Of a stretch of 64,000 nt of DNA, positions 4,266 to 39,110 are shown one piece after another. The translations under genes and the position numbers were made by a program. The DNA lies in assembly GCA_965208665.1 (NCBI GenBank), contig CBDBPH010000001.1, positions 131,045 through 195,044 of the forward strand, written 5' to 3'. The DNA is from Dehalococcoidia bacterium. Lineage in GTDB: Bacteria > Chloroflexota > Dehalococcoidia > Bin125. The notes under the pieces are model-generated. The model was not told the DNA's origin and searched no databases. It was given only the letters and a program-made list of their open reading frames with translations. Position 1 is the first letter of the stretch; every line of letters begins with the position of its first letter.

Positions 4266-4326
4266 GGGCCCTCACGCTCGGCTGCGTGGGGGCCCTCACC
4301 CTAGCCCTCTCCCAGAGGGAGAGGGG
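4266..4326. repeat. REP-like dispersed palindromic element, copy A (duplicated GGCCCTCAC leader + CCCTCTCCC-AGA-GGGAGAGGG hairpin)
   Basis: ggccctcacgctcggctgcgtgggggccctcaccctagccctctcccagagggagagggga; intergenic between halogenase stop and HTH gene stop; same family recurs at 23548, 26086, 34581, 38749, 39000. Confidence 0.8.
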
Positions 4327-4342
4327 AACAGAAGGAGAACCG

Positions 4343-5059
4343 CTAGGCGGCTTCGGCGCGGATTGGGGTTGGGATCTCGGGGTTTTGGCGGTCGGGATCG
4401 GTGAGTTGGTCGAGGAAGGCGAGGATTTGTTCGGTCGATTGGCCCTTGAGGTGGGGGAAGTGGTCGATGGCTTCGCTGATCAGGGCGTCCAGGTCGGTTG
4501 GATTGGGGAGGTGGACAGTTTCGGGGGCATTTTTTTCCTCCTGGGGCCGATCCGCGACGATCTCCTGCGCTGGACTGGAGATCGTGGGTTCGGGGTGGTC
4601 AGTTTTGTCAGTTTCGGAGGTGGATTCCGCTAGTTTCTGTGGTTCTGCCTGCGGTGCTTCATCAAAGAGGCCGGGTTGGTCGGGGCGCTGTTCGGCGCGG
4701 CGGTAGATGTCCTGGGCGGTGCGGCGGATCTCGCGGGCGAGCGCGTTGAGCTGGGTCTCTCGGCCCTCGCGGGCGCGCAGGTAGTCGACTGGCGTGAGCC
4801 GGTCGGTATTGGCGGCCACGTCGTCGTACTTGATGGCGAGCGAGAGGCGGAGGTGGAGCAGGTGCAGCGATTCGAGGAGGATGTCGTCCGCGGCGGCCGA
4901 GGCGATGCTGTTCCAGTGGGTCTCGACGAGCTGGAGGTCAGCGCGGACGGTGGCGTGCGAGACCTCGAGCTGCTTGGCGATCTGCCGCTGGGAGTTTCCG
5001 CGCTGGCGGAGGTAATGGACGCGGAGGCAGCGTTGTCGCCGCTTGGATGGGATGTGCAT
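4343..5059 (-). CDS. HTH domain protein (sigma-70 region-4-like / terminase-small-like HTH) with long acidic disordered C-terminal tail
   Basis: N-terminus LRQRGNSQRQIAKQLEVSHATVRADL is a helix-turn-helix; the rest is E/D/P/Q-rich low complexity. GGAAGG RBS 8 nt upstream of ATG at 5059. Confidence 0.45.
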   Translation of the reverse strand: MHIPSKRRQRCLRVHYLRQRGNSQRQIAKQLEVSHATVRADLQLVETHWNSIASAAADDILLESLHLLHLRLSLAIKYDDVAANTDRLTPVDYLRAREGRETQLNALAREIRRTAQDIYRRAEQRPDQPGLFDEAPQAEPQKLAESTSETDKTDHPEPTISSPAQEIVADRPQEEKNAPETVHLPNPTDLDALISEAIDHFPHLKGQSTEQILAFLDQLTDPDRQNPEIPTPIRAEAA

Positions 5060-5158
5060 GGTTGGGACCTTCCATGGTGCGTACAGATGTTCGGTGAGTG
5101 TAGCGAATGTGTGTTCCGTGTTGCTGTGTCGTGGTTGTCGGAGGGGGTTAACGCAGAA

Positions 5159-5190
5159 GACCCGCGCCGGAGCGCGGGTCTCTGTTGGGT
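5159..5190 (-). terminator. putative intrinsic terminator downstream of LLM oxidoreductase gene
   Basis: Perfect 9-bp GC stem GACCCGCGC-CGGA-GCGCGGGTC (5159-5180) flanked by U-rich tracts on both strands, 26 nt after the stop of the minus-strand gene. Confidence 0.4.
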
Positions 5191-5205
5191 GAACCGGGGG
5201 CGGGA

Positions 5206-6501
5206 TTAGTCGCCGGACATTGGGTCTCCGGTGAGGGTGTTGACCTCGAAGGCGCCCTTGAGGTCGAGTTCCTTACCCATCTCGCGGACGGCGGGGATGA
5301 CTTCCTCGCCGAACAGCTTGAGGGAGCGCATTGCGTCGTCGTGGTTCATGGCGCCGTCGCCGTCCCAGAAGAAGATGTTGCCGGGGCGCAGTTCTTCGAG
5401 GACGTGCCGGATCTTGGGGATCACGGTCTTCGGCGTACCGGTGATGATCGAGTACTTGTTGATCTGCTCCTCGTAGGTGCCGAAGGCGTCGGCGTCGACC
5501 TTGTCGGTCTCAGCATCCTTCTCCGCGAGGGCGGCCTTCTGCTCTTCCTGGCGTCCACGCGCGGCGGCAGCGAAGGTGCTGACGGTCGGCAGGAGCTGCG
5601 TGCGCGAAGTCAGACCAGGCAGGTTCTGCAGGTTGCTGCGAACGGTGCCCTGGTTGCCCTCGAGGAAGGGGTTGGCCGGACCGGAGATGTACTTGCGGCC
5701 GGCTTCCTCGGCCAGTTCCTCGGTCTCGTCGACGTGGACCTTGAAGAGGTAGCCGTGGTGCTCGGTCGAGGCTTCGTAGCCGTTCTCTTGCGCGACCTCG
5801 TCGTAGTAGTCGAACGACTTCTTGGTCGGCTCGATCTCGGTGGCGAGCATGACGTAGGGGTAGCGATGCTCGGCGCACCACTTGACGGTGTTGCGGCTCA
5901 TCACGCCGGGGATCCAGATCTGGGGGTGCGGCTCCTGGTAGGGGCGGGCCCAGGGGTTGACGTAGCGGTACTGGTAGTGCTCGCCTTCCCAGCGGAAGGG
6001 GCCGGGGGTGGACCAGGCCTTGACCACGAAGTCGTGGGCTTCCTGGAAGCGCTCCCAGTTGAAGGGGGCCTGGGAGTTGTGGGCGACCGACTCGCGGCCG
6101 GTGCCGCGGACCCAGCCGGTGACCAGGCGGCCACGGGAGATCATGTCGATCTCGGCCAGTTCCTCGGCGAGCCACAGGGGGTCTTCCCAAATGGGGAGGA
6201 CGTTGCCGAGCAGGACGATCTTGGCTCGCTTGGTGATGCGGGCGAGGATCGCGGCTTCGACGTTCATCACGCCGCCCATGCAGAAGGGCGTGGAGTGATG
6301 CTCGTTGAGCATCAGGCCGTCAAAGCCCATCTCCTCGGCGTAGACCTTCTCGTCGAGGTAGCGGTTGTAGAGTTCGGCGCCGATTCGGGGGTCGTAATCC
6401 CCGTTGGTCATCCCGAGGTCTTCGATCTCGCGGCCGGTCGCTCCGACCCAGCCCGATTCGAAGTCCTGGTAGGGACGTTCCGTGAAATAGCCAATGAACA
6501 T
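5206..6501 (-). CDS. LLM-class (luciferase-like) flavin-dependent oxidoreductase/monooxygenase
   Basis: 431 aa; ...FDGLMLNEHHSTPF... TIM-barrel bacterial-luciferase-family pattern; length and composition typical of F420/FMN-dependent LLM enzymes. Confidence 0.75.
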   Translation of the reverse strand: MFIGYFTERPYQDFESGWVGATGREIEDLGMTNGDYDPRIGAELYNRYLDEKVYAEEMGFDGLMLNEHHSTPFCMGGVMNVEAAILARITKRAKIVLLGNVLPIWEDPLWLAEELAEIDMISRGRLVTGWVRGTGRESVAHNSQAPFNWERFQEAHDFVVKAWSTPGPFRWEGEHYQYRYVNPWARPYQEPHPQIWIPGVMSRNTVKWCAEHRYPYVMLATEIEPTKKSFDYYDEVAQENGYEASTEHHGYLFKVHVDETEELAEEAGRKYISGPANPFLEGNQGTVRSNLQNLPGLTSRTQLLPTVSTFAAAARGRQEEQKAALAEKDAETDKVDADAFGTYEEQINKYSIITGTPKTVIPKIRHVLEELRPGNIFFWDGDGAMNHDDAMRSLKLFGEEVIPAVREMGKELDLKGAFEVNTLTGDPMSGD

Positions 6502-7592: not shown

Positions 7593-10500
7593 ATGTTCGG
7601 ACTTTTTCGCCTACTCAGGCTCGCCGCCCTACGCGAATTGCGGGGCGGCTGGCTATTGATGTTCGGGGCGGCCTCGCTGCTGATCATCGCGGCCGGGCTG
7701 GTCGCGTTGCCGCTGGTCTTTCGAGCGGCCTCGGCGGACCTGGCACTTCGTGAGTTGATCGAGCAATCGCCGCGCGGGACCACCTTTGCGGACCACTCGC
7801 GCGCCTTCCGTCCGGCCAGCGCGGAGGACTTCGATTTCGTGGAGCGGGATGCGGCGGAGGCGCGCGAGCGGCATCTGGAACGGTTCCCGGGACTGGTCGG
7901 CGACACGCGGCGGATCATGGAGACTCCCGAGATCTTCGCCGGGTTCACGCGGCTCGACAACGGACTGAATGAGTCGATTCAGGCGTACCTGATGTCGTTC
8001 GAACAACTGCGGTCGAACGCGCGGCTGGTACGTGGCGATTGGGCCGGTTCGGCGGACGAGGTGGTGATCGGCTCGCGACTCGCCGAACAGCTCAACATCG
8101 ATGTCGGCAGCGTGGTCAGTTTCAGCGAGGCGATGCAGTTCGAGATCAGCGGGGTCATCGAGCCGGTTGTGGCGGATGTCACGCGGGTGCTGGCGTTCCA
8201 CTACACGGACGTCTGGTTCGAGTTGCAGTTCGATATCACGCTGGGCGGCGCCGAGGTGCCGTACTTCGGCATGTTCGCGGAGTCGGAGGCGCTGGAGCGA
8301 CTCGGGGCTCCGGTGACGCATCGGATGCGGACCGAATTGGATACGGACGCGATCAACTCCGACCAGGTTGAGGATGTGATCGAGTCTCTGGGCGCGTGGC
8401 AACAACAGCTGAGCCGACTGGAGGGTGGCTCGGCGGGCACGCTGTTGGTGGGGGCGCTGCAGTCCTTCGTACGCCAGGCGCAGTTTTCGGCCGGGCAGTC
8501 GCTGCTGGCCGGTCTGCAGATCGCTGCGGTGGCGATGTTCGGCGTCGCGCTGGTCGGCCGGGTGATGGCGCAGCGGACTCGCGTCGATCGCGAACGGCTG
8601 GCGGCTCGGGGGGCGAAGCCCTGGCAACAGGCGGGGGCGCAGGCGATGCTCGGCGGTGTCGCGGCGCTGCCGGCGGCGATTCTGGGCGCTCCATTGGCCG
8701 CGTTCGCGTTGAGTCACGCCGGACGGTTGGAGGCGGTGGCGCGTGTCTCGGGCGGTGAGCCGTTCGATACGCGGCTGACAGTGGAGGCCTGGGGCCTGGC
8801 GATTGCGGGCGCGGTGATCGCCTGGATCGCATTTGCCGCGCCGGCCTGGTTCGATGCTCGGCAGCGGACGAATGAGCGCGTGGCGCAGGGGCGGCCACAG
8901 CGGCAGTCCCTGGTGCAACGGGCCTGGCTTGATGTGGCGCTCTTGGCGCTGGCGACGGTGCTGTTTCTGCAGTTCGAGACCGAGGCGTCGGGCGGGGCGC
9001 TTGCGGCGTTTGAGTCGGGTGGGATCAATCCGGTGCTGATGTTGAGCCCGGGACTGCTGCTGCTGGGCGCGGCGTTGACGATCATGCGGCTGGCGCCTCG
9101 AGTCTGGGGCTTCGCGGCGGCGGTGCTCTCCAGATCACCGATTCCGTCGTGGCTGTATCTCGGAGTGCTCAACGTCGCTCGGAATCCGACCGGTCCGATG
9201 TTGCTGACGGCGCTGGTTGCATTCGTCACGGCGGTGGGACTGATCTCGGCGACGTATGCGTCGACGATTCGGACCGTCGAGCGGTCGCGGATCGAGTATG
9301 AGGTCGGCTCGGACCTTCGCGGCGTGTCGATCGGCGGCAACCTGTCGAACTCGACGGTGGGCCGCGTGACGGAACCACTGCAGAGCCGTCAAGGGATTAT
9401 GGCGGCAGCGGCGTATCGCGGGATCGGTGCGATCGGCGGGGACCGCGAGGGCAGCCGCGTCGTGTTGTTGGGGCTGCAGACGAGCCGGTTATCCGAGATC
9501 GTGTCACTGGATGAGGACTTGCTGGGTACGCCGCCGGACGAGTTGTTGGCGGCGATCGAACGGGAGCCGGGGCGCGCCGGTCAGGAGTTGCCGGACGGGG
9601 CAGAGGCGCTGACGGTGCGCGTGCGCAGCGATCCCGGGAACAGCAACCTTGAACTGGCGGCGCGGGTGCTCGACGCCCGTGGGCAGGTGCACATGCGGCC
9701 GTTTCGGACGAACACGGCGTCCATCGTGGACGGGGACTGGAACACGTTTCGCGCGCCGCTGGGCGGGCTTGAGCAACCGCTGCGGATCGCCGCGATCATT
9801 CTGCGGCCGCAGGCGCGGGTCGTGAGAGCGCCGACGGGCACGTTGTACATCGACGAGTTGAACGCGCAGGTGGGGGAGCAATCCGTCGCGGTGGATGCGT
9901 TTGACGAGGATGGGCCGTGGTTGCCCGCCTCGGGCGGTGCGGGCGAGGACCGGATTTCCTTCGAGGGCGGAGGGCTGCGCTACCACTGGTCGCAACTTGC
10001 GGCGAGCGATGAGCGCATCATCGTGCGCGAGTCGCCGAACCTGCCGGTCAATGCGGCGATGGATCGAACGTCGATGGAGACCGCCGATCTGAGTGTCGGC
10101 GACATTGTGCCGATCGGGGTCAGCAACGCGAATATCCCGGTGCGGATCCAGGCGGCCGTTGATTACTTTCCGACGCTCAATCCGGCGCAGGGTGGATTCC
10201 TGATCGTGGATCTGCTGGCGCTGCGGGGGGCGGCGCTGGTCGCGGCGGTTCAGGCGGTGCTGCCGATCACGGAGGTGTGGACAGCGACTGGGACCAACGC
10301 GGGGCGTCTCGTAGCGGGCGAGTTGCTGGACGATGTGTACCTGGCCAGCACGGTGCTGGACGCGGAGGCGAAGATTGCAGCGGCGGAGGAGGATCCGTTT
10401 CGCTCGGGCGGCGCGGCTGCGTTGTTCGTGGTTGGATTCATTGGCCTTCTGATCGTAGGTTCGGCGGCGTTGATTTTCACGCTCGCCGCTGCCGGCGGGG

Positions 10501-10835
10501 AGCGTGCTCGTGAGTTTGCGCTGATGCGGACGGTCGGCTCGGGTCGCGCCGGATTGACCGCGCAGGCCGCAGTGGAGGTCAGCCTCGTGTTGGCGGCCGG
10601 TGTGGCGCTTGGTTTCGGTCTGGGGCGGGCCGTGGCGGGCGCGTTGTTGGCCTTCCTTGATGTCACGGCTGAAGGGGTGGCGGCGGCTCCGCCGACTGCG
10701 CTTTCGATCGACTGGGTGCTGGCCGGTATTGGGGTCGGGGTGATCGTGTTGTGCGCGGTGCTGGGCACGACGGCGATTTCACGCTGGGCGACGGGCCGTG
10801 AAGCTGCTCCTCTGCTGCGGGAGGGGGCCGACTGA
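7593..10835 (+). CDS. giant FtsX-like ABC transporter permease (two FtsX 4-TM modules, large extracytoplasmic domains), 1080 aa
   Basis: N-terminal TM segment, two extracytoplasmic domains each followed by a 3-4 helix hydrophobic cluster; C-terminus EFALMRTVGSGRAGL... resembles the FtsX/MacB permease signature. Confidence 0.65.
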   Translation: MFGLFRLLRLAALRELRGGWLLMFGAASLLIIAAGLVALPLVFRAASADLALRELIEQSPRGTTFADHSRAFRPASAEDFDFVERDAAEARERHLERFPGLVGDTRRIMETPEIFAGFTRLDNGLNESIQAYLMSFEQLRSNARLVRGDWAGSADEVVIGSRLAEQLNIDVGSVVSFSEAMQFEISGVIEPVVADVTRVLAFHYTDVWFELQFDITLGGAEVPYFGMFAESEALERLGAPVTHRMRTELDTDAINSDQVEDVIESLGAWQQQLSRLEGGSAGTLLVGALQSFVRQAQFSAGQSLLAGLQIAAVAMFGVALVGRVMAQRTRVDRERLAARGAKPWQQAGAQAMLGGVAALPAAILGAPLAAFALSHAGRLEAVARVSGGEPFDTRLTVEAWGLAIAGAVIAWIAFAAPAWFDARQRTNERVAQGRPQRQSLVQRAWLDVALLALATVLFLQFETEASGGALAAFESGGINPVLMLSPGLLLLGAALTIMRLAPRVWGFAAAVLSRSPIPSWLYLGVLNVARNPTGPMLLTALVAFVTAVGLISATYASTIRTVERSRIEYEVGSDLRGVSIGGNLSNSTVGRVTEPLQSRQGIMAAAAYRGIGAIGGDREGSRVVLLGLQTSRLSEIVSLDEDLLGTPPDELLAAIEREPGRAGQELPDGAEALTVRVRSDPGNSNLELAARVLDARGQVHMRPFRTNTASIVDGDWNTFRAPLGGLEQPLRIAAIILRPQARVVRAPTGTLYIDELNAQVGEQSVAVDAFDEDGPWLPASGGAGEDRISFEGGGLRYHWSQLAASDERIIVRESPNLPVNAAMDRTSMETADLSVGDIVPIGVSNANIPVRIQAAVDYFPTLNPAQGGFLIVDLLALRGAALVAAVQAVLPITEVWTATGTNAGRLVAGELLDDVYLASTVLDAEAKIAAAEEDPFRSGGAAALFVVGFIGLLIVGSAALIFTLAAAGGERAREFALMRTVGSGRAGLTAQAAVEVSLVLAAGVALGFGLGRAVAGALLAFLDVTAEGVAAAPPTALSIDWVLAGIGVGVIVLCAVLGTTAISRWATGREAAPLLREGAD

Positions 10836-13800
10836 TGTCGCAGCAGGTGCCGACTCGACGCGGCGAAACGGCACGTGAGCTGGGCAGGCTAGCGCTGCGG
10901 CGTATCGCTTCGGCGCCCAGGCTCTCGACGGTGCTGCTGATCGGGGCCCTGTTAGCGGTGGGTCTGGCGAGCAGCGCACCGATCTTCATCGAAGCGGTGC
11001 GTGATCTGGGGCTGCGGCAGACACTCGCCGATGCCGAACCCGCGTCGCTGGACCTGCGATTCAACCAGACCAACGTGACCGCGGACTCGACGTCGGTTGA
11101 CGACGTTGAGTCGCTCATCCATGAGGAGGTCACGGCGGCGGCCTCGTCGCTGACGGTTGGCCGGATGACGGCTCTGCGAACCGGCGGATACATCTTGCGA
11201 ACGGACGATCAGCCGTTCGATCCGCCGGACGCCGATCACGCCACATTCGTCGCGCAGAGCGACGTGTCGGACCTCTCGGAAATCGTGGCCGGGCGTAGAC
11301 CGGAGGCAACGACCGAGCTTTTGGAGGTGATGGTCGAGCGGAGGCAGGCGCGGGAGTTTGGTCTCGACGTTGGGGACGAACGATTGGCCCAGCCGTTCTG
11401 GCTGGGGACCGAGCATGAGACTCGCGTGCGGATCGTCGGCGTCATCGAGCCGTCGACCGACCAGCGGCGTTGGTCGACGCTCGATCCGCTGTTCCTACCG
11501 ATCGCTGCGCTGGACACGGAGCTGCGCTTCTGGACCACGCGGGAGGGGATTCTCGGCATTCTCGCCGAGCAGTCGCCCACGTTGCGGCTGTCGTTACTGC
11601 AGCGGTTCCGGACCGACTTGCAGGGCGCGTCGGCGGCGGAAGCGTCGGCGGCGGCCGATTCGCTGGAGCAGATGACGCGGCGGATATCGCAGTCCGTGGA
11701 CGGGATCCAGCTGGAGACGGAACTGGTCGACACGCTGGTCGGGTTCAGCCAACGTTTCCAGTTCGCCCAGTCGACGCTGTTGATGATCGTGCTGCAGCTC
11801 GTGGGCGCGGTGTTGGTCTATGCGGTGGTGGCGTCGGCGATGCTTGCCGAGCAACGCACCGAGGACACGGCGTGGCTTCGGTCGCGAGGCGCCCGGCAGC
11901 GCGACGTCGCGGTGATGCACATCGTTGAGGCCGCGATCCTGACGGCTCCGGCGATATTGCTGGGACCGTTGATCGGCATGGGTCTGGTCAGTCTGCTGGG
12001 ATACGTCCCACCTTTCGACGAGGCGCTGGCCGCTACGGGCGTGGGTCCGTTCCTGCCGGTCTCGCTGCCGATCGAGTCGTGGTACCTGGCGATCGGTGCG
12101 GGCGCGCTGGCGCTGCTGGCTCAGGCGGTGCCGACCTATCGAGCGACTCGTCAGACGATGGTCACGACCCGTCGGGAACGTGGTCGGCCGCCCGCGTCGT
12201 GGACGCAGCGCGCCTTGATCGACGCGGCCGTGGCGGCGCTGGGAGCTCTGCTGATCTTTGAACTGCAGTGGGCCGGTGACCCGATCGACTCGCCGTTGGT
12301 CGGTGAGACGCGGCTGGACTGGTTGGCAGTTGCGACACCGACCGTGTTGCTGTTCGTGGTTGGGCTGATCGTGCTGCGCTTGTTCCCGCCGACGATGCGA
12401 CTGCTGGCCCGAGTTGCTTCGCCGTGGCGCTCGCTGACGCTGTTGATGGGCGCCTGGTATCTGGGGCGCACACCGACGCACTACGCGCGGACGGTGTTGT
12501 TGCTCACGATCGCGGGTGCGCTGGCGGTGTTTGCGGCCTCGTTCCGGACGACGCTCGACACGTCCTACCACGATCGCTCGCTGCATGCAGTGGGTGCGTC
12601 GGTGCGTCTGACCGAGCCGGTCTCGGACATCGTTCCGTATGAGGAGATTGAGGAGGCCAGCGGCGCATCGGTGGCACAGATTCGGCGGATTGTGGGGGCG
12701 TTCGAAGGGGACGAAGACTCAGGTCGGCTGCAGATTGCGGCGTTGGACTCGGCGGTGGTCGCCGATCAGTTGGCCGAACAAGGGGCTGATTGGGCGTTGC
12801 CGCCGGCGGACCTGAAGGAGATTGCGATAGTGCCGAACGAAGTGCAGGGAACGGTGATTGACGACTTCGGCGGCCGCCTGGAACTACAGATTGCAGCTGC
12901 ACGGCTCGGGCAGGAGACGGTGATCGGCATCAAGGTGCTGGACGCCATTGGGCGCTATTGGTGGTACGCCATCGACACGCTCAGCCCCGCTCCGGTTCAA
13001 GATGATCCGGAGTGGCTCACCATCTCCAGCCGCTTGACGGAGGAACCGGCCGCCTATCTGCCACTGGAGGGCGCGCGGCTGATCCAGGGACAAAGCAGGT
13101 TCAGCCCGACCGTGGCGGAGCGTCCAGTCGCGCCGCTGACCCTGGTATCGCTTGACCTGGCGATCACCCGCGCCGCGGGAGAGATCGTACTTGGCGAATT
13201 GACCTACACGAGGCGTGGTGAGCGCTCCCTATTGGCCGACTTCAGCTCAGGACGCTGGGAGGCGACGCCGTTGGAGGTCGGCGAGGAACCACTGGATTTC
13301 CTCGTCGTCACCGAAGAAGGCGCACGCTATCGGTGGAATGCGATTCCATCATCTCTGCGCGGGGTGCGCTACATCGCAGACCGGGGGCCATTGCCGGCAC
13401 TGTTCTCGGCGCAGGCCATCGAACAAGGCCGGCTCAACATCGGCGAGACGGTCAAACTGCGCATCGGGCCGTCCTCGATGACGTTTCTGGTCGCGGGACA
13501 GTTTGAGACCTTCCCCAGCTACGATCCGCAGCGCGACGATCCGCTTGTGTTGATCGATCGGGCGGCGTTCATCGATCGGCTGTATGGCAGCGCGGCGGCG
13601 GGCGTGGCCCTGGCCGTGAGCAACGAACTGTGGGCTTCGGCCTCGCTGCAGCGGTGGGGCGGACTATTGGTCGAGTACGAGCTGCCGAGCCAGAGCGATG
13701 GCATCGCCACGATCGAGAGCGCCCGGGAGGAGCTTGCGGCCGACCCGCTGATCGTCGCTTCGTGGAATGGCGTCTTCATCGGCGCGCTGGCGGCGGTGGC

Positions 13801-23544: not shown

Positions 23545-23547
23545 ATC

Positions 23548-24457: not shown

Positions 24458-24463
24458 CGTCGA

Positions 24464-26055: not shown

Positions 26056-26085
26056 TGGTTGTGTCCATCTATGGCTGGTGCAGGT

Positions 26086-26134: not shown

Positions 26135-26144
26135 GAATGAGCGC

Positions 26145-26528: not shown

Positions 26529-26705
26529 CGCAACAGTCCTCTCATCGCCTCGTTGTCGGGAGGTTGGAGCCAGTGTAGCAGGCGCCGCCGGCCGATCGGG
26601 TGTTCCGGGTTGACGGCCATGGGATTTGCGATCAGTGCGGGACGGCCCGGATTCAGTAATGGACTGTCCACAGATTGTCACAACGCGGGGTTGTCGTGCT
26701 GCTAC

Positions 26706-26719
26706 AGAACTATAGTTCG
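26706..26719 (+). promoter_or_regulatory. putative LexA (Cheo-type SOS) box AGAACTATAGTTCG overlapping the -35 region of the imuB-dnaE2 promoter
   Basis: Perfect GAAC-N4-GTTC palindrome 3 nt upstream of a TATAAT hexamer (26722-26727), ~35 nt upstream of the imuB ATG. Confidence 0.55.
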
Positions 26720-26721
26720 GT

Positions 26722-26727
26722 ATAATG
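26722..26727 (+). promoter_or_regulatory. putative -10 hexamer TATAAT for imuB-dnaE2
   Basis: Consensus -10 in an otherwise GC-rich region, directly downstream of the SOS box. Confidence 0.4.
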
Positions 26728-26753
26728 TTTTTCGACTCTGAGTGGAGCCAGAC

Positions 26754-31324: not shown

Positions 31325-31399
31325 TTCCGATCGAGGATCGCATCGTGCCGAACGGGACGCCTCAGGACAGTGAATTCGACGAATCGTTACCCTGATCCC

Positions 31400-32563
31400 A
31401 TGGACCGCGCATACTTCGACCATGCAGCGACGACGCCGTTGGAGCCTCGGGTGTTGGAGGCGATGGTTCCGGCCCTCCAGTACGGCTGGGGGAATCCTTC
31501 GGGAATTTATCGCGAAGCTCAGTATGCGGCCGGGCTGTTGGATCAGGCGCGGGATGACATCGCGGGGGTTCTGGCGTGTTCTGCCTCGGAGGTGGTGCTG
31601 ACGTCGGGCGGGACGGAGTCTGACAACCTGGCGATTCGGGGGGCGGCGCTGGCACGCCAAGCGGCGGGCCGGCACTTGATTACCCAGGCGACCGAGCATC
31701 ATGCGGTGCTGCATGTGATGGAACAGCTGGAGCATGAAGGCTTCGAGCTGACGGTGCTCGGGGTGGACGGCGAGGGCTTTGTCGAACCTGATGAGGTGGC
31801 ATCGGCGGTACGCGAGGACACGACGGTGGTCAGCATCATGCTGGCAAACAACGAGATCGGCGCGGTGCAGCCGATGGCGGAGATTACGCGTGCGGTGAAA
31901 GCGCGGAACCGGCGGACGATCGTGCACACCGATGCGGTGCAGGCGGCGGGGGCTGTCGATATCCGTCCCGACGTGCTGGGCGTCGACTTGATGTCGCTGA
32001 CGGCGCACAAGATTTACGGGCCGAAGGGCGCGGGGGCACTCTATGTACGGCGTCGGACGCCGCTACAGCCGCTGCAGTTGGGGGGCGGTCAGGAGGAGGA
32101 GCGCCGGGCGGGCACGGAGTCGGTGGCGCAGGCGGTCGGTCTGGCGAAGGCGCTGCAGTTGGCGGAGGAGGAGCGCCTGCAGCGGACTGGGCATACGTCG
32201 GAGTTGCGCAATCGTCTGTGGCGCGAGCTGAACGAGCGCGTGCATCCGATCAGGTTGAACGGTCCGTCGGACTGGTCGCGTCGGTTGGCGAACAATCTGA
32301 ATGTGAGTTTCCCCGGGGTCGAAGGCGAGAGCATCCTGTTGCAGCTCGATCTGGAGGGCTTCGCTGCTTCATCGGGCTCGGCATGTAGTACCGGGAGTAA
32401 CGAGCCGAGTCATGTGCTGACGGCACTCGGGCTCGATCCCGATACCGCGCATAGCACGCTGCGGTTGAGCCTGGGGCAGTCGAATACCGAGGAGCAGATC
32501 GACGGGATAGCGCGGACGATCGAGGAGATTACGGCGCGTCTGCGGGCGTTGTCGCCGGTCTAG
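31400..32563 (+). CDS. iscS: cysteine desulfurase (IscS/NifS family, class V aminotransferase)
   Basis: MDRAYFDHAATTP..., SGGTESDN, Lys in SLTAHKIYGPKG, active-site Cys loop SSGSACSTGS. Confidence 0.8.
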   Translation: MDRAYFDHAATTPLEPRVLEAMVPALQYGWGNPSGIYREAQYAAGLLDQARDDIAGVLACSASEVVLTSGGTESDNLAIRGAALARQAAGRHLITQATEHHAVLHVMEQLEHEGFELTVLGVDGEGFVEPDEVASAVREDTTVVSIMLANNEIGAVQPMAEITRAVKARNRRTIVHTDAVQAAGAVDIRPDVLGVDLMSLTAHKIYGPKGAGALYVRRRTPLQPLQLGGGQEEERRAGTESVAQAVGLAKALQLAEEERLQRTGHTSELRNRLWRELNERVHPIRLNGPSDWSRRLANNLNVSFPGVEGESILLQLDLEGFAASSGSACSTGSNEPSHVLTALGLDPDTAHSTLRLSLGQSNTEEQIDGIARTIEEITARLRALSPV

Positions 32564-32574
32564 GCGCGCGAGGA

Positions 32575-33699
32575 TCACGCAGTTGGGTCGAGTTGCGCAG
32601 ACCAGTCGATATCGGTTTCGAGGAATCGCCCGACTTCAGCGAACTCGGCTTCCAGTTGCGTTTGTGCGCTCTCTGACAATTCTTCGAAGCATGTGACCCT
32701 GACGGTCAGTCCGCGGGCACGGCGTTTGCGGTCCCAGGTTGCGACCAATCGGCCCTCGATCAAGACGCAGGGACGGAGCATCCCGCCGCCGGCGTTGACT
32801 CGCTTGAGGAGATGGTCGGGGACGTCGAGGTCTCGTTTGGCGTAGCCGACGATGTACGGATCGAATGGTCCCAACACTCGCAAGACGTCCTGTGGAGCGT
32901 CCAGCACATCGTTGAGCCGATCCAAGCCGTCCTGCGACATCCACATCGTCTGGCCATCGACGTCTACCTCGGTCAGAGCTTCCATCGCGGCTTGTAGACA
33001 TTGACGGGTGTCGGCAGCGGGCAGGCCGGACCACCAGCGGAAATCGGACTGGGTTGCCGGGCCGTAGGCGGCGAAGTAGCGGCGGGCGAGTTCGGCGCCG
33101 GGGTCCGGAGGTGGATCGGCCTGGGGCAGCCAGTCGTCGATCAGGACGTGGGTCGTGTCGCCGTTGCGTTCGGGACCGAAGCAGGTGACGCCCAGCAACG
33201 ACGTGGTACGGAGCAGGTGGGGTGTGGCCTGGCCGTCCGACGGAAGGCCCGCCGAACGGAAGGCGTCGCCAATCTCGGCTCGGGTCATTGGTCCCCTGGC
33301 TGCGAGTTCCTTGCGCAGGAACTTGAGCACCTTGGCATGGTCGTCGTCGGAGATGCCTAGGTCGGCTCGGCGTTTGAGCGCCTTGGCGTCGATGGCTTCG
33401 CCGAGCAGGTCGAGCATCCAGCGGAGATCCTCGGATGGGACGAGATGGAGGGTGCCGCGCATGAGCCAGTTGCGGACGATCGAGCGGTCGACGAGGCGGG
33501 CGTGATCGACGTTGGCGGCGGTCAGGCCCGTCGAGCGGGTGCCGACGCCGAGTTGCTCGCCGAGGCGGTCCTGGGCCTGGATGGCGGCGGCGGATCGGAC
33601 GGTGTCGGGCACGGCTGTGCCGCGCCGGGCGCTCAACAGCTGGGCGTGGAGGCGAAGGCGATGGGCCTCGCGGCGGGTGAGGGCGATTTCGGCGGGCAT
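32575..33699 (-). CDS. AlkZ/YcaQ-like winged-helix DNA glycosylase (DUF1006; interstrand-crosslink repair family)
   Basis: 374 aa; N-terminal AAIQAQD (Q-hydrophobic-Q catalytic motif as in AlkZ), HLVPSEDLRW, C-terminal winged-helix region. Confidence 0.6.
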   Translation of the reverse strand: MPAEIALTRREAHRLRLHAQLLSARRGTAVPDTVRSAAAIQAQDRLGEQLGVGTRSTGLTAANVDHARLVDRSIVRNWLMRGTLHLVPSEDLRWMLDLLGEAIDAKALKRRADLGISDDDHAKVLKFLRKELAARGPMTRAEIGDAFRSAGLPSDGQATPHLLRTTSLLGVTCFGPERNGDTTHVLIDDWLPQADPPPDPGAELARRYFAAYGPATQSDFRWWSGLPAADTRQCLQAAMEALTEVDVDGQTMWMSQDGLDRLNDVLDAPQDVLRVLGPFDPYIVGYAKRDLDVPDHLLKRVNAGGGMLRPCVLIEGRLVATWDRKRRARGLTVRVTCFEELSESAQTQLEAEFAEVGRFLETDIDWSAQLDPTA

Positions 33700-33713
33700 G
33701 AGTATCAGCCTAG

Positions 33714-34550
33714 GTGGGCGGAATTGGTAGGCTCACGCTCGTGACCAGTCCACCCAGTCCACCCAGTCCACGCGGCGATGGATGGCAGCCGGACCAGTAC
33801 GCCCGGTTCAAGGCGGAGCGGGAGCAGCCGTTCTACGACCTGCTGGACCTGGTAGAGCCGGTGCTCGCGGGGCGCGTGGTCGATCTGGGTTGCGGTACCG
33901 GCGCGCTGACTGTGGCGTTGCACACGAAGACGTTGGCGGACGAGACGGTCGGGCTGGACCGGTCGGAGGCGATGCTGGAGCAGAGCGCTGAGCACGCGGG
34001 TGGCGGTGTGCGGTTTGTGCGCGGCGACATTGCCGAGTTCAGCGGGTTGGATGGCGGCGGGCTGGATGTGGTGTTCGCCAACGCGTCGATCCAGTGGGTG
34101 CCGGACCATGCGTCGCTGTTTCCTCGGCTGGCCGCGACGCTGAGGCCGGGCGGGCAACTGGCGGTGCAGATGCCGGCCAACGAGGATCATCCGTCGCACG
34201 CGGTGGCTCGCGCGGTGGCGCAGGAGTCGCCGCACGCGGAGGCGCTGGGCGGGTTCGTGTATCGGCACTCGATCGAGTCGGCGGAGTGGTACGCGGAGCA
34301 GCTGGCGCGGCTCGGATTCGTCGAGCAGCACGTGCGCGTGCAGGTCTATCTGCACCGGTTGCCGGGGCCGGAGGACGTGATCGAGTGGGTCAAGGGGTCG
34401 CTGCTGACGGGCTATCGGAATCGGATGTCGGCGGAGGACTACGAGGCGTTCCTGGCGGACTATCGGGAGCGCCTGCTGTCGGTGTTGCCCGACGAGCGTC
34501 CGTTCCTCTACCCGTTCAAGCGGCTCCTGCTGTGGGGGCGGATGGGCTAG
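33714..34550 (+). CDS. tam: trans-aconitate 2-methyltransferase-like SAM methyltransferase
   Basis: WQPDQYARFKAEREQPFYDLL (Tam N-terminal signature), VVDLGCGTGALT motif I. True start may be the GTG at 33741 because the AlkZ-like gene starts at 33699 on the other strand. Confidence 0.65.
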   Translation: MGGIGRLTLVTSPPSPPSPRGDGWQPDQYARFKAEREQPFYDLLDLVEPVLAGRVVDLGCGTGALTVALHTKTLADETVGLDRSEAMLEQSAEHAGGGVRFVRGDIAEFSGLDGGGLDVVFANASIQWVPDHASLFPRLAATLRPGGQLAVQMPANEDHPSHAVARAVAQESPHAEALGGFVYRHSIESAEWYAEQLARLGFVEQHVRVQVYLHRLPGPEDVIEWVKGSLLTGYRNRMSAEDYEAFLADYRERLLSVLPDERPFLYPFKRLLLWGRMG

Positions 34551-34564
34551 GCGGTGGTCAGGGT

Positions 34565-34639
34565 GGTTGGGTTTGGTCGAGGCCCTCACCCTAGCCCTCT
34601 CCCTCGGGGAGAGGGGACTGGAGATGGTTGGGTTTGGTC
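34565..34639. repeat. REP-like palindromic element, copy D, flanked by a 14-bp direct repeat GGTTGGGTTTGGTC
   Basis: ggttgggtttggtc-gaggccctcaccctagccctctccctcggggagaggggactggagat-ggttgggtttggtc; immediately after the tam stop; left border of a lower-GC accessory segment. Confidence 0.8.
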
Positions 34640-34777
34640 AGGTTCGGTAGGCGTGTTATGTCGAGTGGGATTGCGAATTCCCTGTGTTTTGCTGGGTTTC
34701 GTGATCGGTGGTAGGTCGTCAGGTGAGAATTTTTCCTGGGCGCTGGGAAACGAAAAAACGGGTTCGGGTGCTCAGAC

Positions 34778-34807
34778 TTGTCCAGATCTGTCCAGATTCG
34801 TCCAGAT
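34778..34807. repeat. 10-nt x3 tandem repeat (TTGTCCAGAT/CTGTCCAGAT/TCGTCCAGAT) in a ~400-bp lower-GC non-coding stretch
   Basis: Read directly from the sequence; lies 3' of the MTase gene. Confidence 0.7.
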
Positions 34808-35014
34808 GCGGCTCGATTTTGCCAGTTTTGTTCCAGGTGAGTCCGCGCGAGTTCAGGAGCGTCCGGGTTGGCGGCTGGATGCTGACTGGCTGGATATTGG
34901 CGGGGCACGTGGGTTGCCTCCCGGCTGCGTGAGCGCATATGTTCTGATTGTATTCGATTTCGGCATCCTGTGGGGACGCGGGGCGAACCGGGCTTGTGGT
35001 CGGATTGACAGGGA

Positions 35015-36658
35015 CTACGCGTCGAGGGATTGCTGGACGCCTTGCTGGCGCCGCCGGCGTGGGGCTTTGCGGAAGGTCTGGGGGGCGGCGAAGCGGGGGT
35101 AGTCGGGCTGGTCGCCGTTGAGGAGCTGCTCGATGGTGAGGATCTGGACCTTGGGGTACCTCCGGGTCTCGAGTCCCGATGATTCGTAGAAGCCGGCGGC
35201 GATCGCTTCCTGGCGCATCGGCTTGGTCGGTTCTTCAAGGGTGATGAAGATGCCGATGGCGGCGTCCTCGCGCTCCATGTCGCCCTTGAGCGTGGCGACC
35301 ATGCCGCGGTTGACGTGACCGCTCTTGACCTGGACGATGATGCGCCTGGCCTTGCCGGAGTTGTCGTCGAAGAAGTTGATGTAGCCGTCAATGCCGGAGT
35401 CGGCGCCCTTCTTGCCGGTGGCGGGCCGGGCGTCGACGAGGCCGAGCGCCCAGTACTCGAACTGGTAGCGGCCGTCATGCTCGGACTCGGTGGCGAGCGC
35501 GCGGGCACTGGCGACATCCTCTGGGAGCCCGACGATCTGGTAGGCGGACAGTTCGGTGCCGAACGTGTCGTGCAGGCGGTGCTTCATCAATGAGATTGAC
35601 ACGTGAGTGAGATCAATGCCGATCCAGCGCCGCTTGAGCCGCTCGGCCACGGCGACGGCGGTGCCGCAGCCGCAGAAGGGATCGAGGACGATGTCGCCCT
35701 CGTTGCTGCTGGCATCGATGATGCGTTCGAGCAGAGCTTCAGGCTTCTGTGTCGGGTAGCCGAGGCGTTCCTTATGGGCACCAGAAAGCGACGGAATGTC
35801 GCTCCAGATGTCTTGAACTGGCACACCCTTCGAATCTTCCAAGTACAGCTTCTGTCGCGGGTATCCGGTCCTGGAATAGTAGAGCCGGCCTTCGTCATGA
35901 AGCCGCTGCATGGTTTCCTTGCTGTATCTCCATGCGCGAGTGTGACCATTCCAGTCGAAGACGGGATTGCCCTTCTCCGCGCCACCCGGACCAGTCAGAG
36001 GTGTGGTAGTAAAGCGCTTACCGGTCTCCTCATCGATGTGCCTGTAGGTCGATTTGACGTAGCTTTCATCCAGCGGGACAAAACCTTGGTTCCATATGAC
36101 CGAGTCACCCTTGTTATAGAGCAACAGAATGTCGTGGACTCGTCCAAAGTGCCTGGAGCCTTGCCCGACATCGTTATGAGCGCCGTAACGCCGCCAAGTG
36201 ACTTCGTTGGTGAACATGTCGTGTCCGAAGACCGCATCCATCACCAGCTTCAGATAGTGGCTCGCGGTCGGGTCGCAGTGGAGGTAGATGCTTCCGGTTG
36301 GTTTGAGGACGCGGTGGAGTTCGGCGAGGCGCTGGGCCATCATCGTGAGGTAGGCCATCATGTCGTTCTGGCCGAGGAACTCGCGCATCGCCTGGAGCAG
36401 CTTGCCCAGCTTGTCGGGGCCCTCGGTGACAACCTCCTGGTAGGCGCGCTCGGAGTCGAGGGTCCAGTGCCAGGTGTCGTCGAAGGCGGTGATCTGTGCC
36501 GCGGAGTCCTCGCCGGATCGCTCCTTGAAGAGGACGTTGTAGGTGGCGTTGGAGTTGAAGGGCGGGTCGAGGTAGATGAGGTCGACGGACTCGGAAGGGA
36601 TGTGTTCGCGGAGGACGGAGAGGTTGTCGCCGAAGTAGAGCTGGTTGGTCCAGGTCAT
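35015..36658 (-). CDS. DNA methyltransferase (N6-adenine/N4-cytosine, DPPF-type) fused to a C-terminal Mrr-like PD-(D/E)xK nuclease domain
   Basis: SVDLIYLDPPFNSN (motif IV DPPF), C-terminal SAM-binding motif VLDPFCGCGT. Then GADSGIDGYINFF...RRIIVQVKSG (Mrr_cat-type D...QxK). GGAGG RBS upstream of ATG at 36658. Confidence 0.75.
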   Translation of the reverse strand: MTWTNQLYFGDNLSVLREHIPSESVDLIYLDPPFNSNATYNVLFKERSGEDSAAQITAFDDTWHWTLDSERAYQEVVTEGPDKLGKLLQAMREFLGQNDMMAYLTMMAQRLAELHRVLKPTGSIYLHCDPTASHYLKLVMDAVFGHDMFTNEVTWRRYGAHNDVGQGSRHFGRVHDILLLYNKGDSVIWNQGFVPLDESYVKSTYRHIDEETGKRFTTTPLTGPGGAEKGNPVFDWNGHTRAWRYSKETMQRLHDEGRLYYSRTGYPRQKLYLEDSKGVPVQDIWSDIPSLSGAHKERLGYPTQKPEALLERIIDASSNEGDIVLDPFCGCGTAVAVAERLKRRWIGIDLTHVSISLMKHRLHDTFGTELSAYQIVGLPEDVASARALATESEHDGRYQFEYWALGLVDARPATGKKGADSGIDGYINFFDDNSGKARRIIVQVKSGHVNRGMVATLKGDMEREDAAIGIFITLEEPTKPMRQEAIAAGFYESSGLETRRYPKVQILTIEQLLNGDQPDYPRFAAPQTFRKAPRRRRQQGVQQSLDA

Positions 36659-36807
36659 TTGGGGCCTCCGGTGGTCAGGGTAAGGGCAGTCGGGCGTTAG
36701 CAGAGCCGGTCCCGGTTCAAGCGGTGAGTAGCACGTTCCGGGAGCCAAGCATCGACCATCCGTTCGTAGATAGTAGACTAGCGACAGAGACGAGGAGGCT
36801 GACAACG

Positions 36808-37665
36808 ATGCCTGGTGAACTCATTGCGGGTGCTGCCGCAGGCTTGACGAACCCGGCAACTGCGTTGATCGAAAGGGTGTCCGATGCAGTCGGCGGCATC
36901 GCGAGGCCTGCTCAGATTCGTCGTGTCGCTAGGGCTGAGGCCGATGCGAAGGTGATCATGGCCGAAGCGGACATCAAGATCACCGAGATCCAGCAGCGCG
37001 CAGCGCGCCGCTTCATTGAGGAGGAAACGAAGAACCAGATCAACATAGAGAACATTACCCATCAGGCGATACCTCACCTCAATGAAAATGCAGAGCCCGA
37101 GAAGATCGAAGACGACTTTCTCAGGAACTTCTTCGATAAGTCGCGGCTGGTGTCGGACGAACAGATGCAGGAGATCTGGGCCCGCATACTCGCCGGCGAG
37201 GCGAACAACCCGGGAACCTTCGCAAGGAAGACGATCAACATCGTGGCCGATATGGACAAGTCCGACGCCGACCGATTCGCTATCCTCCTCAGTTTTTCCT
37301 GGGTCGTCGGCGGCAACCCGGTGGCCATTGTCTACAACGACGACAGCTATTTCGATGAGAGGGGGATCGATCTAGAGATGTTGGCTGATCAGGAGTCGCT
37401 TGGTCTGATCTCGACGAATTCTCTTCCGTACGGGTTCTACCTCAGCGGGGTATCACTCCGTGCTGCTTACTTCGATAAGTCTGCTCAAATCACTCTGTCA
37501 AACAAAGACAAGAACTTTCTGAGCACGGGCAATGTGTTTCTTACTCCGGCTGGCCGACAGCTCGCATCAATGTGTCGCGTGAGACCGATCGAGGGTTTCT
37601 TTGACTTCATGTGCAGAAGGTGGGAAGAGGACTCGAGCGTAGAGTCGGTCAGGACACTCAACTGA
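36808..37665 (+). CDS. DUF2806-like protein (N-terminal coiled coil), noticeably lower GC than surroundings
   Basis: SDEQMQEIWARILAGEANNPGTFARKTINIVADMDKSDADRF resembles the conserved DUF2806 core; GAGGAGG RBS before ATG at 36808. Confidence 0.45.
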   Translation: MPGELIAGAAAGLTNPATALIERVSDAVGGIARPAQIRRVARAEADAKVIMAEADIKITEIQQRAARRFIEEETKNQINIENITHQAIPHLNENAEPEKIEDDFLRNFFDKSRLVSDEQMQEIWARILAGEANNPGTFARKTINIVADMDKSDADRFAILLSFSWVVGGNPVAIVYNDDSYFDERGIDLEMLADQESLGLISTNSLPYGFYLSGVSLRAAYFDKSAQITLSNKDKNFLSTGNVFLTPAGRQLASMCRVRPIEGFFDFMCRRWEEDSSVESVRTLN

Positions 37666-37685
37666 GTGGCTGAGTGAGGGGAGGG

Positions 37686-37727
37686 GGCCCGTCCCCGAGC
37701 GAGTCGGGGAACGGACGGGGGCTCTGC
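37686..37727 (+). terminator. putative terminator hairpin after DUF2806-like gene
   Basis: Imperfect GC-rich inverted repeat GGGGGCCCGTCCCCGA-GCGAGT-CGGGGAACGGACGGGGGC 20 nt after the stop. Confidence 0.3.
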
Positions 37728-37836
37728 TTGAGGCTTCGATGAGGGGGACGATGTCGTCGAAGTTGGTGGTGGCTCGAACGGTGTCGAGGTCGTAGAAGCG
37801 CTGTAGGGTAGTCGGCTGATGCTTTTGGAGCGCTGA

Positions 37837-38076
37837 GTGAAGACGACCGATCACTTCTGGAAGGCGCGCTTTCTGATGCCCGACCGCGGGCGCATCCAAC
37901 TGCATTGGATTCAGCGAGTAGTGGATCGGCCGCTCCGACGTGAAGTGCAGTCGGATGGCCGAATCCGATGCTGGGGGCGTGTACCGGAACTGGGTGGACG
38001 GGCGCTCAGAGTGGTAATCTTGGCCGACGGCGAGACGGTCCACACTGCGTTCGTCGACGGAAGATTCAGGCCATGA
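37837..38076 (+). CDS. DUF4258-family toxin (type II TA)
   Basis: MKTTDHFWKARFLMPDRGRI... matches the T-DH-x-x-AR-x-x-x-RGI opening of DUF4258; 79 aa; stop overlaps the start of the downstream DUF2283 gene. Confidence 0.55.
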   Translation: MKTTDHFWKARFLMPDRGRIQLHWIQRVVDRPLRREVQSDGRIRCWGRVPELGGRALRVVILADGETVHTAFVDGRFRP

Positions 38077-38270
38077 AGCGGTTCTACTCCAAAGACACCG
38101 ACACGCTCATGTTCGTCTTTTCCGACGAGCGCGTTACTGATTATGTTGATCTGGACTTCCAAACGCTGCTCGAACTGGACTGCGACGGCAATCCCGTTGC
38201 CCTGACCATCGAGCACGCCCGCGAACGCAAGGTGCTGCCAGAGGTCGATTCTGAACGGATTCCCGCCTGA
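38073..38270 (+). CDS. DUF2283-family antitoxin
   Basis: MKRFYSKDTDTLMFVFSDERVTDYVDLDFQTLLELDCDGNPVALTIEHARE is the classic DUF2283 pattern; ATGA overlap with the toxin. Confidence 0.6.
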   Translation: MKRFYSKDTDTLMFVFSDERVTDYVDLDFQTLLELDCDGNPVALTIEHARERKVLPEVDSERIPA

Positions 38271-38720
38271 TTGCGGAGACGATCGATGTTGCGAGCGGTG
38301 GCGGAGCCGGCGGCGATTGAGCGCCTGGCGAGCCAGATCAAGGAGTCGCCGATGGATGAGGTGCGAATGCCGGCGCAAGTCGCCAATCCCGATGCGCCCG
38401 ACCGCTACTGGGAGGCGGATTTCCTGCTCGACAGCGGCGCGAGCGTTTCGGTCGTGCCGGTCGACGTCCTCGAGCGGCTCGGCGTTAGTCCGCGTCGCCT
38501 GGGCCGCTCCTATCTCGCCGATGAGTCGTCGATCGTGCGGCGCGTGGGACTGGCGACGTTTACCGTCGCGGGCGAGACGGAAGACGCGAGCGTCATGTTT
38601 GGCGAGGAGGGCACGGAACCGATCCTCGGCCTGACGGTGCTGCAATCGATGGGGTTTCTCGTTGATCCGCTGCGTGAGCGTCTGCTGCCTCGTTCGGCGC
38701 TCGCGGAGGCGTTGGATTAG
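38271..38720 (+). CDS. retropepsin-like (clan AA) aspartic protease
   Basis: FLLDSGASVSVV carries the D-S-G-A catalytic motif; ~145 aa single-domain bacterial retropepsin-like protein. Confidence 0.55.
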   Translation: MRRRSMLRAVAEPAAIERLASQIKESPMDEVRMPAQVANPDAPDRYWEADFLLDSGASVSVVPVDVLERLGVSPRRLGRSYLADESSIVRRVGLATFTVAGETEDASVMFGEEGTEPILGLTVLQSMGFLVDPLRERLLPRSALAEALD

Positions 38721-38744
38721 GGATCTTCCCGGGACTGGGGTGCT

Positions 38745-39110
38745 GTGGAGGCCCTCACCCCAGCCCTCTCCCTCGGGGAGAGGGGGTCAGAAGGGGCGGG
38801 ATTCCGTAGCGGGGTCGGGAATGAGGGTGAGAGGTGGGTACTGTGGGCGGGTGCCCCCCTCTGTCTCTACGAGACATCTCCCCCCGCTGGCGCGGGGGGA
38901 GAGAAGAAGGGGCGGGTCTCCGGGTTCGAGCGCGGTGGGAGAGGGGAAGGGGCTGGTCCCCGCTCGGGGGTGGGGAACGGGAGGATTCTGCCGTGGGAGG
39001 GGCCCTCACCCCCCGCCTTCGCGGGGGCAGGCTCTAACCCTCTCCCTCGGGGAGAGGGGATTCGCGAGCGGGTCGGGGAGCTGGGAGGGCTCGTGTATCC
39101 TGAGGCGGAT
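38745..39110. repeat. complex array: two full REP-like units (38749-38788, 39000-39062) plus degenerate ~40-45-nt tandem GGGG-rich sub-repeats and additional CCCCGC-N-GCGGGG hairpins
   Basis: Repeated gaaggggc(g/t)gg...cgggg...gggga blocks; the shadow ORF 38745..39116 translates to repetitive GERG/GEGAG peptides. Confidence 0.75.

Follow-up and report, generated by a model that had tools for sequence, protein, structure and literature searches.

The stretch of DNA analyzed here, referred to as the window, comprises 64,000 nucleotides (nt) of contig CBDBPH010000001.1 from a Dehalococcoidia bacterium and carries six copies, A to F, of a short GC-rich palindromic repeat at five intergenic sites across 35 kb. 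Based on sequence comparison, we assign these repeats with high confidence to a family described previously under the names BoxC, PIT (potential intrastrand triplex), and TM_ECO. Taken as a whole, they are probably copies of a structure-forming repeat that proliferates, then decays, and marks variable sites. The window was compared with four relatives: L123, a metagenome contig with 70-84% nucleotide identity that is collinear with the window over 20.7-50 kb, and L193, L195, and L196, which were found through NuoB homologues (NuoB identity 94%, 93%, and 90%, respectively). The copies and the short repeats beside them are the following:

Copy A, 4291-4326, minus strand: CCCTCTCCC-TCT-GGGAGAGGG-CTA-GGGTGAGGG, a full TM_ECO/BoxC match (profile E=8e-13), 16 nt past the stop of the minus-strand gene 4343-5059
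Partial duplicate of the copy A outer block, 4265-4275, plus strand: GGGGCCCTCAC, 24 nt upstream of the original at 4289-4299
Copy B, 23549-23585, minus strand: full TM_ECO match, second loop TGA, between convergent genes and 4 nt past the stop of a Peripla_BP_2 gene
Copy C, 26088-26120, minus strand: degenerate (profile E=1.7e-4), stem CCCCCTCCC/GGGAGAGGG with 1 mismatch and an outer block with 1 change
Copy D, 34581-34616, minus strand: full TM_ECO match, 30 nt past the stop of an S-adenosylmethionine (SAM)-methyltransferase gene, at the left edge of a variable segment
Direct repeat flanking copy D on the left, 34564-34578, plus strand: TGGTTGGGTTTGGTC, 15 bp
Direct repeat flanking copy D on the right, 34625-34639, plus strand: TGGTTGGGTTTGGTC, 15 bp
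Copy E, 38750-38786, minus strand: full TM_ECO match, second loop CTG, 29 nt past the stop of a retropepsin-like gene
Copy F, 39001-39060, minus strand: composite, with a perfect TM hairpin, a 26-nt second loop containing its own 7-bp hairpin, and then GGGTGAGGG

Gene context and identity of the copies

The stem pattern CCCTCTCCC-N3-GGGAGAGGG has 5 matches in the window versus 0.01 expected from 100 dinucleotide shuffles, and the 23-nt unit of leader plus stem occurs 4 times versus 0 expected by chance. A family profile built from 156 elements, almost all of them taken from other genomes, recovered exactly six copies in the window and no other match, confirming the palindromic family that the original prediction had proposed. 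Scans of the window against Rfam (gathering thresholds) and for tRNAs gave no matches. With genes called from third-codon-position GC content and Pfam support, all six copies are intergenic, which bears out the earlier description of a dispersed family broadly resembling repetitive extragenic palindromic (REP) sequences in size and placement. Copies B and D lie between convergent genes, whereas copies A, C, and E are found 16-29 nt past the stop of the upstream gene in a co-directional pair; overall, copies A to E lie 4-30 nt after a stop codon. Copy F is 52 nt before nuoB and adjoins conserved sequence upstream of that gene, which is shared with L193. Some details of the original prediction need correction. 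The C-rich strand is on the plus strand in all six copies, so that copy C is not inverted. The duplicated leader of copy A is a true duplication but is limited to an 11-nt repeat, and the direct repeat around copy D is likewise real, with a length of 15 bp rather than 14. The 11-nt duplicate corresponds to the first 11 nt of the copy A outer block and resembles a slippage product beside the element.

Read on the minus strand, the unit is CCCTCTCCC-N3-GGGAGAGGG-N3-GGGTGAGGG, and the supposed leader or flank is therefore a third conserved block of the element itself. The published TM_ECO pattern is 5'-CCCTCNCCC N3-6 GGGNGAGGG N3 GGGNGAGGG-3' (Holder et al. 2015, Nucleic Acids Research 43:10126, PMC4666352), with exact minus-strand matches at copies A, B, D, and E. 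Copies C and F fall outside the strict pattern, the former with a first loop of 2 nt and one change in each purine block and the latter because of its long second loop, yet both are recognized by the family profile. According to that paper, TM_ECO is identical to the BoxC repeat of the 1990s and to the PIT element of Hoyne and Maher 2000/2002 (PMC4666352). The same blocks can be read directly in the hrpB-mrcB and ygfF-gcvP sequences of Escherichia coli K-12, as well as in Table 1 of Holder et al. Furthermore, the 21-mer GGGAGAGGG-CTA-GGGTGAGGG is distinguished only by its middle loop from HPG1/HPG2, described as an E. coli switch between G-quadruplex (G4), hairpin, and duplex (Kaplan et al. 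2016, Nucleic Acids Research 44:9083, PMC5100583). Because the six repeats match a published motif, the family was already known and is not specific to this genome; its core also occurs under labels from at least 15 phyla (see below).

The element has narrow limits. In a flank profile of 170 elements, conservation outside the 33-nt core reaches no further than about 3 nt (G-Y-Y), located 5' of it on the G-rich strand, with G at position -3 in 55% and C or T at -2 and -1, and there is no longer element body or terminal inverted repeat outside the 36-nt core. Our search for newer literature on BoxC or TM_ECO found nothing beyond the 2015-2016 papers and reviews. To our knowledge, over about 30 years no function or means of spread has become accepted for the BoxC-type element.

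Potential folds of the element and a second repeat family

On its G-rich strand, the element consists of three 9-nt blocks within about 36 nt: a pyrimidine block CCCTCTCCC, its Watson-Crick partner GGGAGAGGG, and a purine block GGGTGAGGG that is mirror-symmetric to the second. The E. coli version has been shown by published circular dichroism (CD) and nuclear magnetic resonance data to form, as a single strand, a 9-bp hairpin that together with the third block makes a purine-motif intrastrand triplex, and the literature offers as an alternative fold a G4 built from four G-tracts. In copies A, B, D, E, and F, 9/9 positions are allowed triplets of the class II purine motif (G.G:C, A.A:T, and T.A:T). 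The computed free energy of the hairpin is about -10 kcal/mol as DNA, and that of the stem alone is about -17.5 kcal/mol as RNA. We also searched the window for potential triplexes, defined as a perfect 8-bp homopyrimidine/homopurine hairpin with a mirrored third block within 30 nt and at most one mismatch, which gave 7 hits versus 0 in 20 shuffles. Six hits are on the minus strand and correspond to copies A, B, D, E, and F and to a repeat of a different sequence, referred to as family 2; the seventh is on the plus strand with 1 mismatch and overlaps copy D. The positions of family 2 are the following:

Family 2 repeat of the window, 38852-38903, minus strand: CTCCCCCC-loop-GGGGGGAG-[mini hairpin]-GAGGGGGG, third block mirroring the second
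Family 2 copies in L123: 1120-1165, 3201-3241, and 4989-5032
Family 2 copy in L195: 1580-1620

The purine arm of family 2 is not self-mirror, which makes this repeat informative. The blocks read TCTCCCCC / GGGGGAGA / AGAGGGGG at two sites of L123 and CCTCCCCC / GGGGGAGG / GGAGGGGG at the L123 and L195 sites that correspond to site B, and the third block is the mirror and not the direct copy in every case (window, L123, and L195). The 26-nt insert in copy F is a hairpin related to this second family. The second loop of family 2 is itself a mini hairpin (TGTCAC..GTGACA or GTCTC..GAGAC), and at two sites in L123 the repeat is part of a multi-hairpin unit of about 190 nt.

In other genomes, variant forms of the canonical element obey the mirror rule in register, for example, CCTTCTCCC / GGGAGAAGG / GGATGAGGG and CCTTCCCCC / GGGGGAAGG / GGATGGGGG. 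Of the variant types that are not self-mirror, 15 are better matched by the mirror, 4 by the direct copy, and 8 by both equally; the four direct-copy types resemble the canonical element shifted in register. Two of the four G3 tracts are broken in these variants, so the property that is conserved would fit a triplex better than a canonical G4, and the three-way mirror covariation as a whole points in the same direction.

Variable DNA upstream of nuoB and turnover of the copies

Copies D, E, and F bracket a segment whose gene content is not shared with the relatives:

Variable segment, 34552-39089: about 4.5 kb, bracketed by copy D and copies E/F
DNA methylase fused to an Mrr-like domain (Pfam), 35015-36805, minus strand, within the variable segment
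DUF2806 gene, 36724-37665, within the variable segment
Retropepsin-like gene, 38271-38720, within the variable segment

Homology with L123 ends at the stop codon of the methyltransferase gene (34551) and resumes at 39090. Within the segment the GC content drops to 58-62%, and its right end is made up of copy E, the family 2 repeat, and copy F. Between the methyltransferase gene and nuoB, L123 has 560 nt, L195 a Uma2 gene, L193 a HigB/HTH pair, and L196 DUF4917/ICEA-type genes. The content of this gap thus differs in every genome, and the space between the two genes is a hotspot for the exchange of defense or selfish genes. The proposal that the repeats mark both borders of an accessory island holds, as copies D and E/F edge a segment that is absent from the syntenic relatives. 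An association of TM_ECO with variable loci has been reported for 56 E. coli strains (Holder et al. 2015, PMC4666352).

Other parts of the window also differ among the relatives. Genes of the Uma2 family (putative restriction endonucleases) are unusually numerous, with one in the window (43602-44294), four in L195, and two each in L193 and L196, and they repeatedly fill variable gaps between conserved genes in this lineage. At 26742-31324, the window encodes an imuB-like gene (IMS family) followed by a dnaE2-type error-prone polymerase gene with PHP, DNA_pol3_alpha, finger, HHH, and OB domains. This cassette of about 4.8 kb is absent at that position in L123, L195, and L196, where an Fe-S gene is followed almost directly by a class-V aminotransferase gene. 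The complex-I-like genes at 39113-47032 (NuoB-like, NuoI-like ferredoxin, and NuoG/molybdopterin-type subunit) are noncontiguous, being interrupted by minus-strand genes for a 782-amino-acid CarboxypepD_reg-domain protein, an unknown open reading frame (ORF), and Uma2. Two adjacent proteins of 1080 and 1115 amino acids, encoded at 7593-14182, have a C-terminal FtsX-like permease domain as their sole Pfam match.

The copies themselves turn over. Copies B, D, E, and F have no counterpart in L123, L193, L195, or L196, and the perfect copies are therefore recent and lineage specific. Copy C is the only copy with orthologues, being shared by the window (CTCTCACCC..CCCCCTCCC..GGGAGAGGG), L123 (..CTCCCTCCC..GGGAAAGGG), and L195 (..CCCTCTCCC..GGGAGAAGG), while L196 lacks it. 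Each of these three versions has its own noncompensated changes, which disrupt stem pairing or the outer block; this old orthologous copy is decaying without visible constraint. In imperfect copies from other genomes, the altered stem pairs comprise 16 broken, 6 wobble, and 4 compensated ones, counts that were made from a sequence profile and are biased against double changes. Site B is occupied by the family 2 repeat in L123 and L195 and, in the window, by a TM copy together with a shorter spacer. We considered compensatory changes at this site and rejected them, as L123 and L195 carry a different repeat family and not a diverged copy.

All six copies and the family 2 copy have the C-rich strand on the plus strand, where the GC skew is positive throughout, although the co-oriented copies amount to only five independent sites. 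Among 94 loci with uniform orientation, the G-rich strand is on the locally C-skewed strand in 58 versus 36 (p ~0.03, from noisy 8-kb skews), whereas our reading of the E. coli table of Holder et al., with oriC near 3.92 Mb, gives 13 versus 10 in the opposite direction. Given this weak and reversed trend, we do not claim a replication-strand bias. Multicopy loci of Chloroflexota are co-oriented in 5/5 cases, with the window counted; in other phyla, most are close inverted pairs (22 loci of the +/- type), which resemble REPINs or bacterial interspersed mosaic elements (BIMEs).

Alternative readings, spread, and known systems

Our preferred reading is that a structured repeat, and not a gene-specific regulatory site, would proliferate and then decay. 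Copies may settle just 3' of genes, where they would do little harm. Folding into non-B DNA during replication or repair could, as has been argued for E. coli, favor insertions and deletions (indels) and the gain of foreign genes in nearby intergenic DNA; indel-prone DNA around the copies would then account for their bracketing of the variable segment upstream of nuoB. What is maintained may be the triple-block fold itself, as suggested by the three-way covariation. In its behavior, the element appears to be a structured repeat that marks, and perhaps promotes, variable intergenic DNA rather than a dedicated terminator.

Several points weigh against this reading. The copy number and the view on replication strands come from 64 kb of the genome. 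The link between copies and variable DNA is correlative, and repeats may merely accumulate where insertions are tolerated; our comparison covers element-bearing sites alone. All six copies are near the 3' end of a gene, which fits a hairpin acting at the RNA level equally well. The covariation counts were taken from loci chosen because they have the canonical element; these counts contain register-shifted duplicates and lack phylogenetic independence. Finally, published work did not find a stable triplex in double-stranded DNA, nor did dimethyl sulfate footprinting in vivo.

If the 9-bp GC hairpin acted in RNA, it would shield mRNA from exonucleases at the 3' end of genes or aid termination, with the third block being incidental. 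The position of copies A to E shortly after stop codons, the stability of the RNA stem, and the symmetry of the hairpin, which would make it usable in both orientations, are all consistent with such a role. However, the orientation of the copies relative to the upstream gene is mixed, the hairpins have no T/U tract (their tails read GGGGAC...), a terminator scan of 23000-40000, which covers five of the six copies, called none of them terminator-like, and Maher's group found no promoter or terminator activity of the element in E. coli, at least as cited in Holder et al. (PMC4666352), so that the terminators suggested by the original prediction are not supported. The decay of copy C through pair-breaking changes in three lineages argues against its maintenance as a hairpin, the relatives have the same gene ends without the element, and a hairpin role leaves unexplained why the third block is conserved as well as the stem and covaries with it. 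A role as an mRNA 3'-end stabilizer is possible, but we consider an RNA-level explanation of the family unlikely. The same DNA could instead work as the regulatory switch proposed by Kaplan et al. (2016), in which a G4 of the form GGG-AGA-GGG-NNN-GGG-TGA-GGG would form in competition with the hairpin and thereby modulate transcription or replication. The sequence G3N3G3N3G3N3G3 is exact in copies A, B, D, and E, the same 21-mer switches between G4-like and hairpin-like CD spectra (PMC5100583), and a review table gives melting temperatures for the Klebsiella versions. However, copies C and F do not fit the motif of four G3 tracts with loops of 1-7 nt, the central loop of copy F being 26 nt long, and family 2 has only two long G runs. 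Other variants replace G's in two of the four tracts (GGGAGAAGG / GGATGAGGG) and keep the mirror rule, the orientation relative to genes is mixed, and the literature shows no demonstrated function (PMC5100583). Taken together, a G4 switch seems very improbable as the explanation of the family.

Two further alternatives concern how the copies move. As nonautonomous elements of the REP/REPIN type, they would be mobilized by a REP-associated tyrosine transposase (RAYT)-like Y1 (HUH) enzyme encoded elsewhere, which moves single-stranded copies without target duplications; as classical miniature inverted-repeat transposable elements (MITEs), they would move by cut-and-paste or copy-and-paste with terminal inverted repeats and a target duplication. 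We examined 164 elements from 120 element-bearing 8-kb loci (L001-L120, among the matches listed) by comparing the longest direct repeat between both 40-nt flanks with that of mismatched flank pairs. The length distributions were the same, with only three outliers, and target-site duplication is therefore not a property of the family. One outlier is copy D, whose 15-bp repeat, together with long flanking repeats at two elements elsewhere, would favor a MITE; however, at another, L058, a pair of copies in one orientation lies about 95 nt apart, which we take for a tandem duplication. For an empty site of copy D, intergenic DNA of the closest relatives (L123, and L124 with 85% amino acid identity) could not be aligned beyond the methyltransferase stop, and the 15-bp repeat is at most a candidate target duplication. 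With no body or terminal inverted repeat past the 36-nt core, flanks unconserved past 3 nt, and no linked transposase in the loci examined, the MITE reading is largely refuted and its probability is minimal. The REP reading shares with our elements the size, the GC-rich palindrome, the intergenic 3'-proximal site, high copy identity, presence or absence that varies between close relatives, the lack of target-site duplications that Y1 transposition predicts, and, outside Chloroflexota, the frequent inverted pairs. However, a search for homologues of E. coli RayT in 5702 ORFs (window, 120 loci, and four relatives) was negative (phmmer, E<=1, with a single distant seed), and all-against-all clustering of ORFs from the element-bearing loci returned only ABC ATPases as a gene family that recurs near elements. 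The GTAG/GTGG head conserved at the 5' end of REPs is absent from the flank profile, which has G-[CT]-[CT] in its place, and the window copies are all single and in one orientation. Furthermore, known REP families are species specific, whereas this core is identical in many phyla, and the E. coli RayT pairs with a different REP. We therefore regard mobilization of a REP/REPIN type as distinctly unlikely.

A scan with the exact 27-base core, using one genome per species, returned at least 120 matching stretches. The matches listed include labels from at least 15 phyla, with 13 loci from Chloroflexota, and comprise Pseudomonadota, Planctomycetota, Verrucomicrobiota, Myxococcota, Acidobacteriota, and Cyanobacteriota, as well as Bacteroidota/Rhodothermota, Omnitrophota, WOR-3, Calditrichota, Methylomirabilota, and others; some of the labeled genomes are metagenome-assembled genomes (MAGs), and single labels such as Bifidobacterium need caution. 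For the NuoB encoded at 39113, the nearest homologues with a name come from MAGs of Dehalococcoidia and Chloroflexi. The motif is also present on complete Dehalococcoidia chromosomes (OZ242283.1, OZ242013.1, and OY762634.1). As the published TM_ECO census of 3610 copies covers 262 proteobacterial genomes (PMC4666352), the host lineage of the window lies outside it. The core is also abundant in IMG/VR contigs (L198-L317 among the matches listed), and 9/10 sampled contigs have phage-type genes (portal, terminase, tape-measure, tail-fiber, or integrase) at the core locus. It occurs in 382 PLSDB records, small and conjugative plasmids included, and in only two GenBank phage records, MG065686.1 and MG065691.1, twice in each. 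These two are unannotated Campylobacter phage records, which is odd given the AT-rich host. The presence of the core in phage contigs and plasmids makes these plausible vehicles for its wide distribution. A bolder reading, which we advance tentatively and consider doubtful, is that of a pan-bacterial, phage- and plasmid-carried, actively proliferating repeat in which the triple helix itself is selected as substrate or trigger of a copying mechanism. It would build on the three-way covariation that is kept both by the variant subfamilies and by family 2, which is unrelated in sequence. The mechanism could be an enzyme acting in trans or template switching that the structure induces where forks stall. 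If true, such copying could also exchange triplex repeats in place, as at site B.

For annotation, we suggest masking these sites as BoxC/TM_ECO repeats, which are sources of spurious proline/glycine-rich ORFs and not terminators. The kind of element was known, and current views are not overturned; what is new are the host lineage and the comparative detail. Specifically, the window adds a host lineage outside the Proteobacteria with high local density, filled and empty orthologous sites that reveal recent gain beside an old copy in neutral decay, one case of copies at both edges of a gene-exchange hotspot, and covariation that could separate a triplex from a G4 reading. The question of what copies these elements is now more sharply testable.

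Compared with known systems, the window copies share with the E. coli BoxC/PIT/TM_ECO elements the three blocks with their spacing and order, a strictly intergenic and multicopy distribution, variable loops, a copy number that varies among close relatives, and a link with variable loci. They differ in the second loop, which is CTA, CTG, or TGA here and TTA or CCG in E. coli; in arrangement, as the copies here are single and co-oriented, whereas those of E. coli often include inverted A+B pairs; and in density, with 4 strict matches per 64 kb versus 23 in the 4.6 Mb of K-12. The presence of the core in phage contigs and plasmids is contrary to the 2015 paper, which found no association with either (PMC4666352). 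HPG1/HPG2 have the same organization, GGGAGAGGG-TTA/CCG-GGGTGAGGG in E. coli versus -CTA/CTG/TGA- here, and are likewise intergenic and preceded by a C-rich block that forms the hairpin; Kaplan et al. read the element as a G4, whereas the covariation here would fit a triplex better. Rho-independent terminators also have a stable GC-rich stem-loop near stop codons but differ in possessing a T/U tract, and, of the copies here, the five covered by the terminator scan were not called, while the element is reported inactive as a terminator in E. coli. REP/BIME sequences with RAYTs (Nunvar 2010; Ton-Hoang 2012) and REPINs are similar in being short, GC-rich intergenic palindromes located 3' of genes, in having highly identical copies, and in lacking target duplications. 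The repeats described here are set apart from them by the conserved third block, the core that is identical across phyla and lacks a GTAG head, the absence of BIME-like alternation in the window, and the fact that no RAYT was detected nearby.

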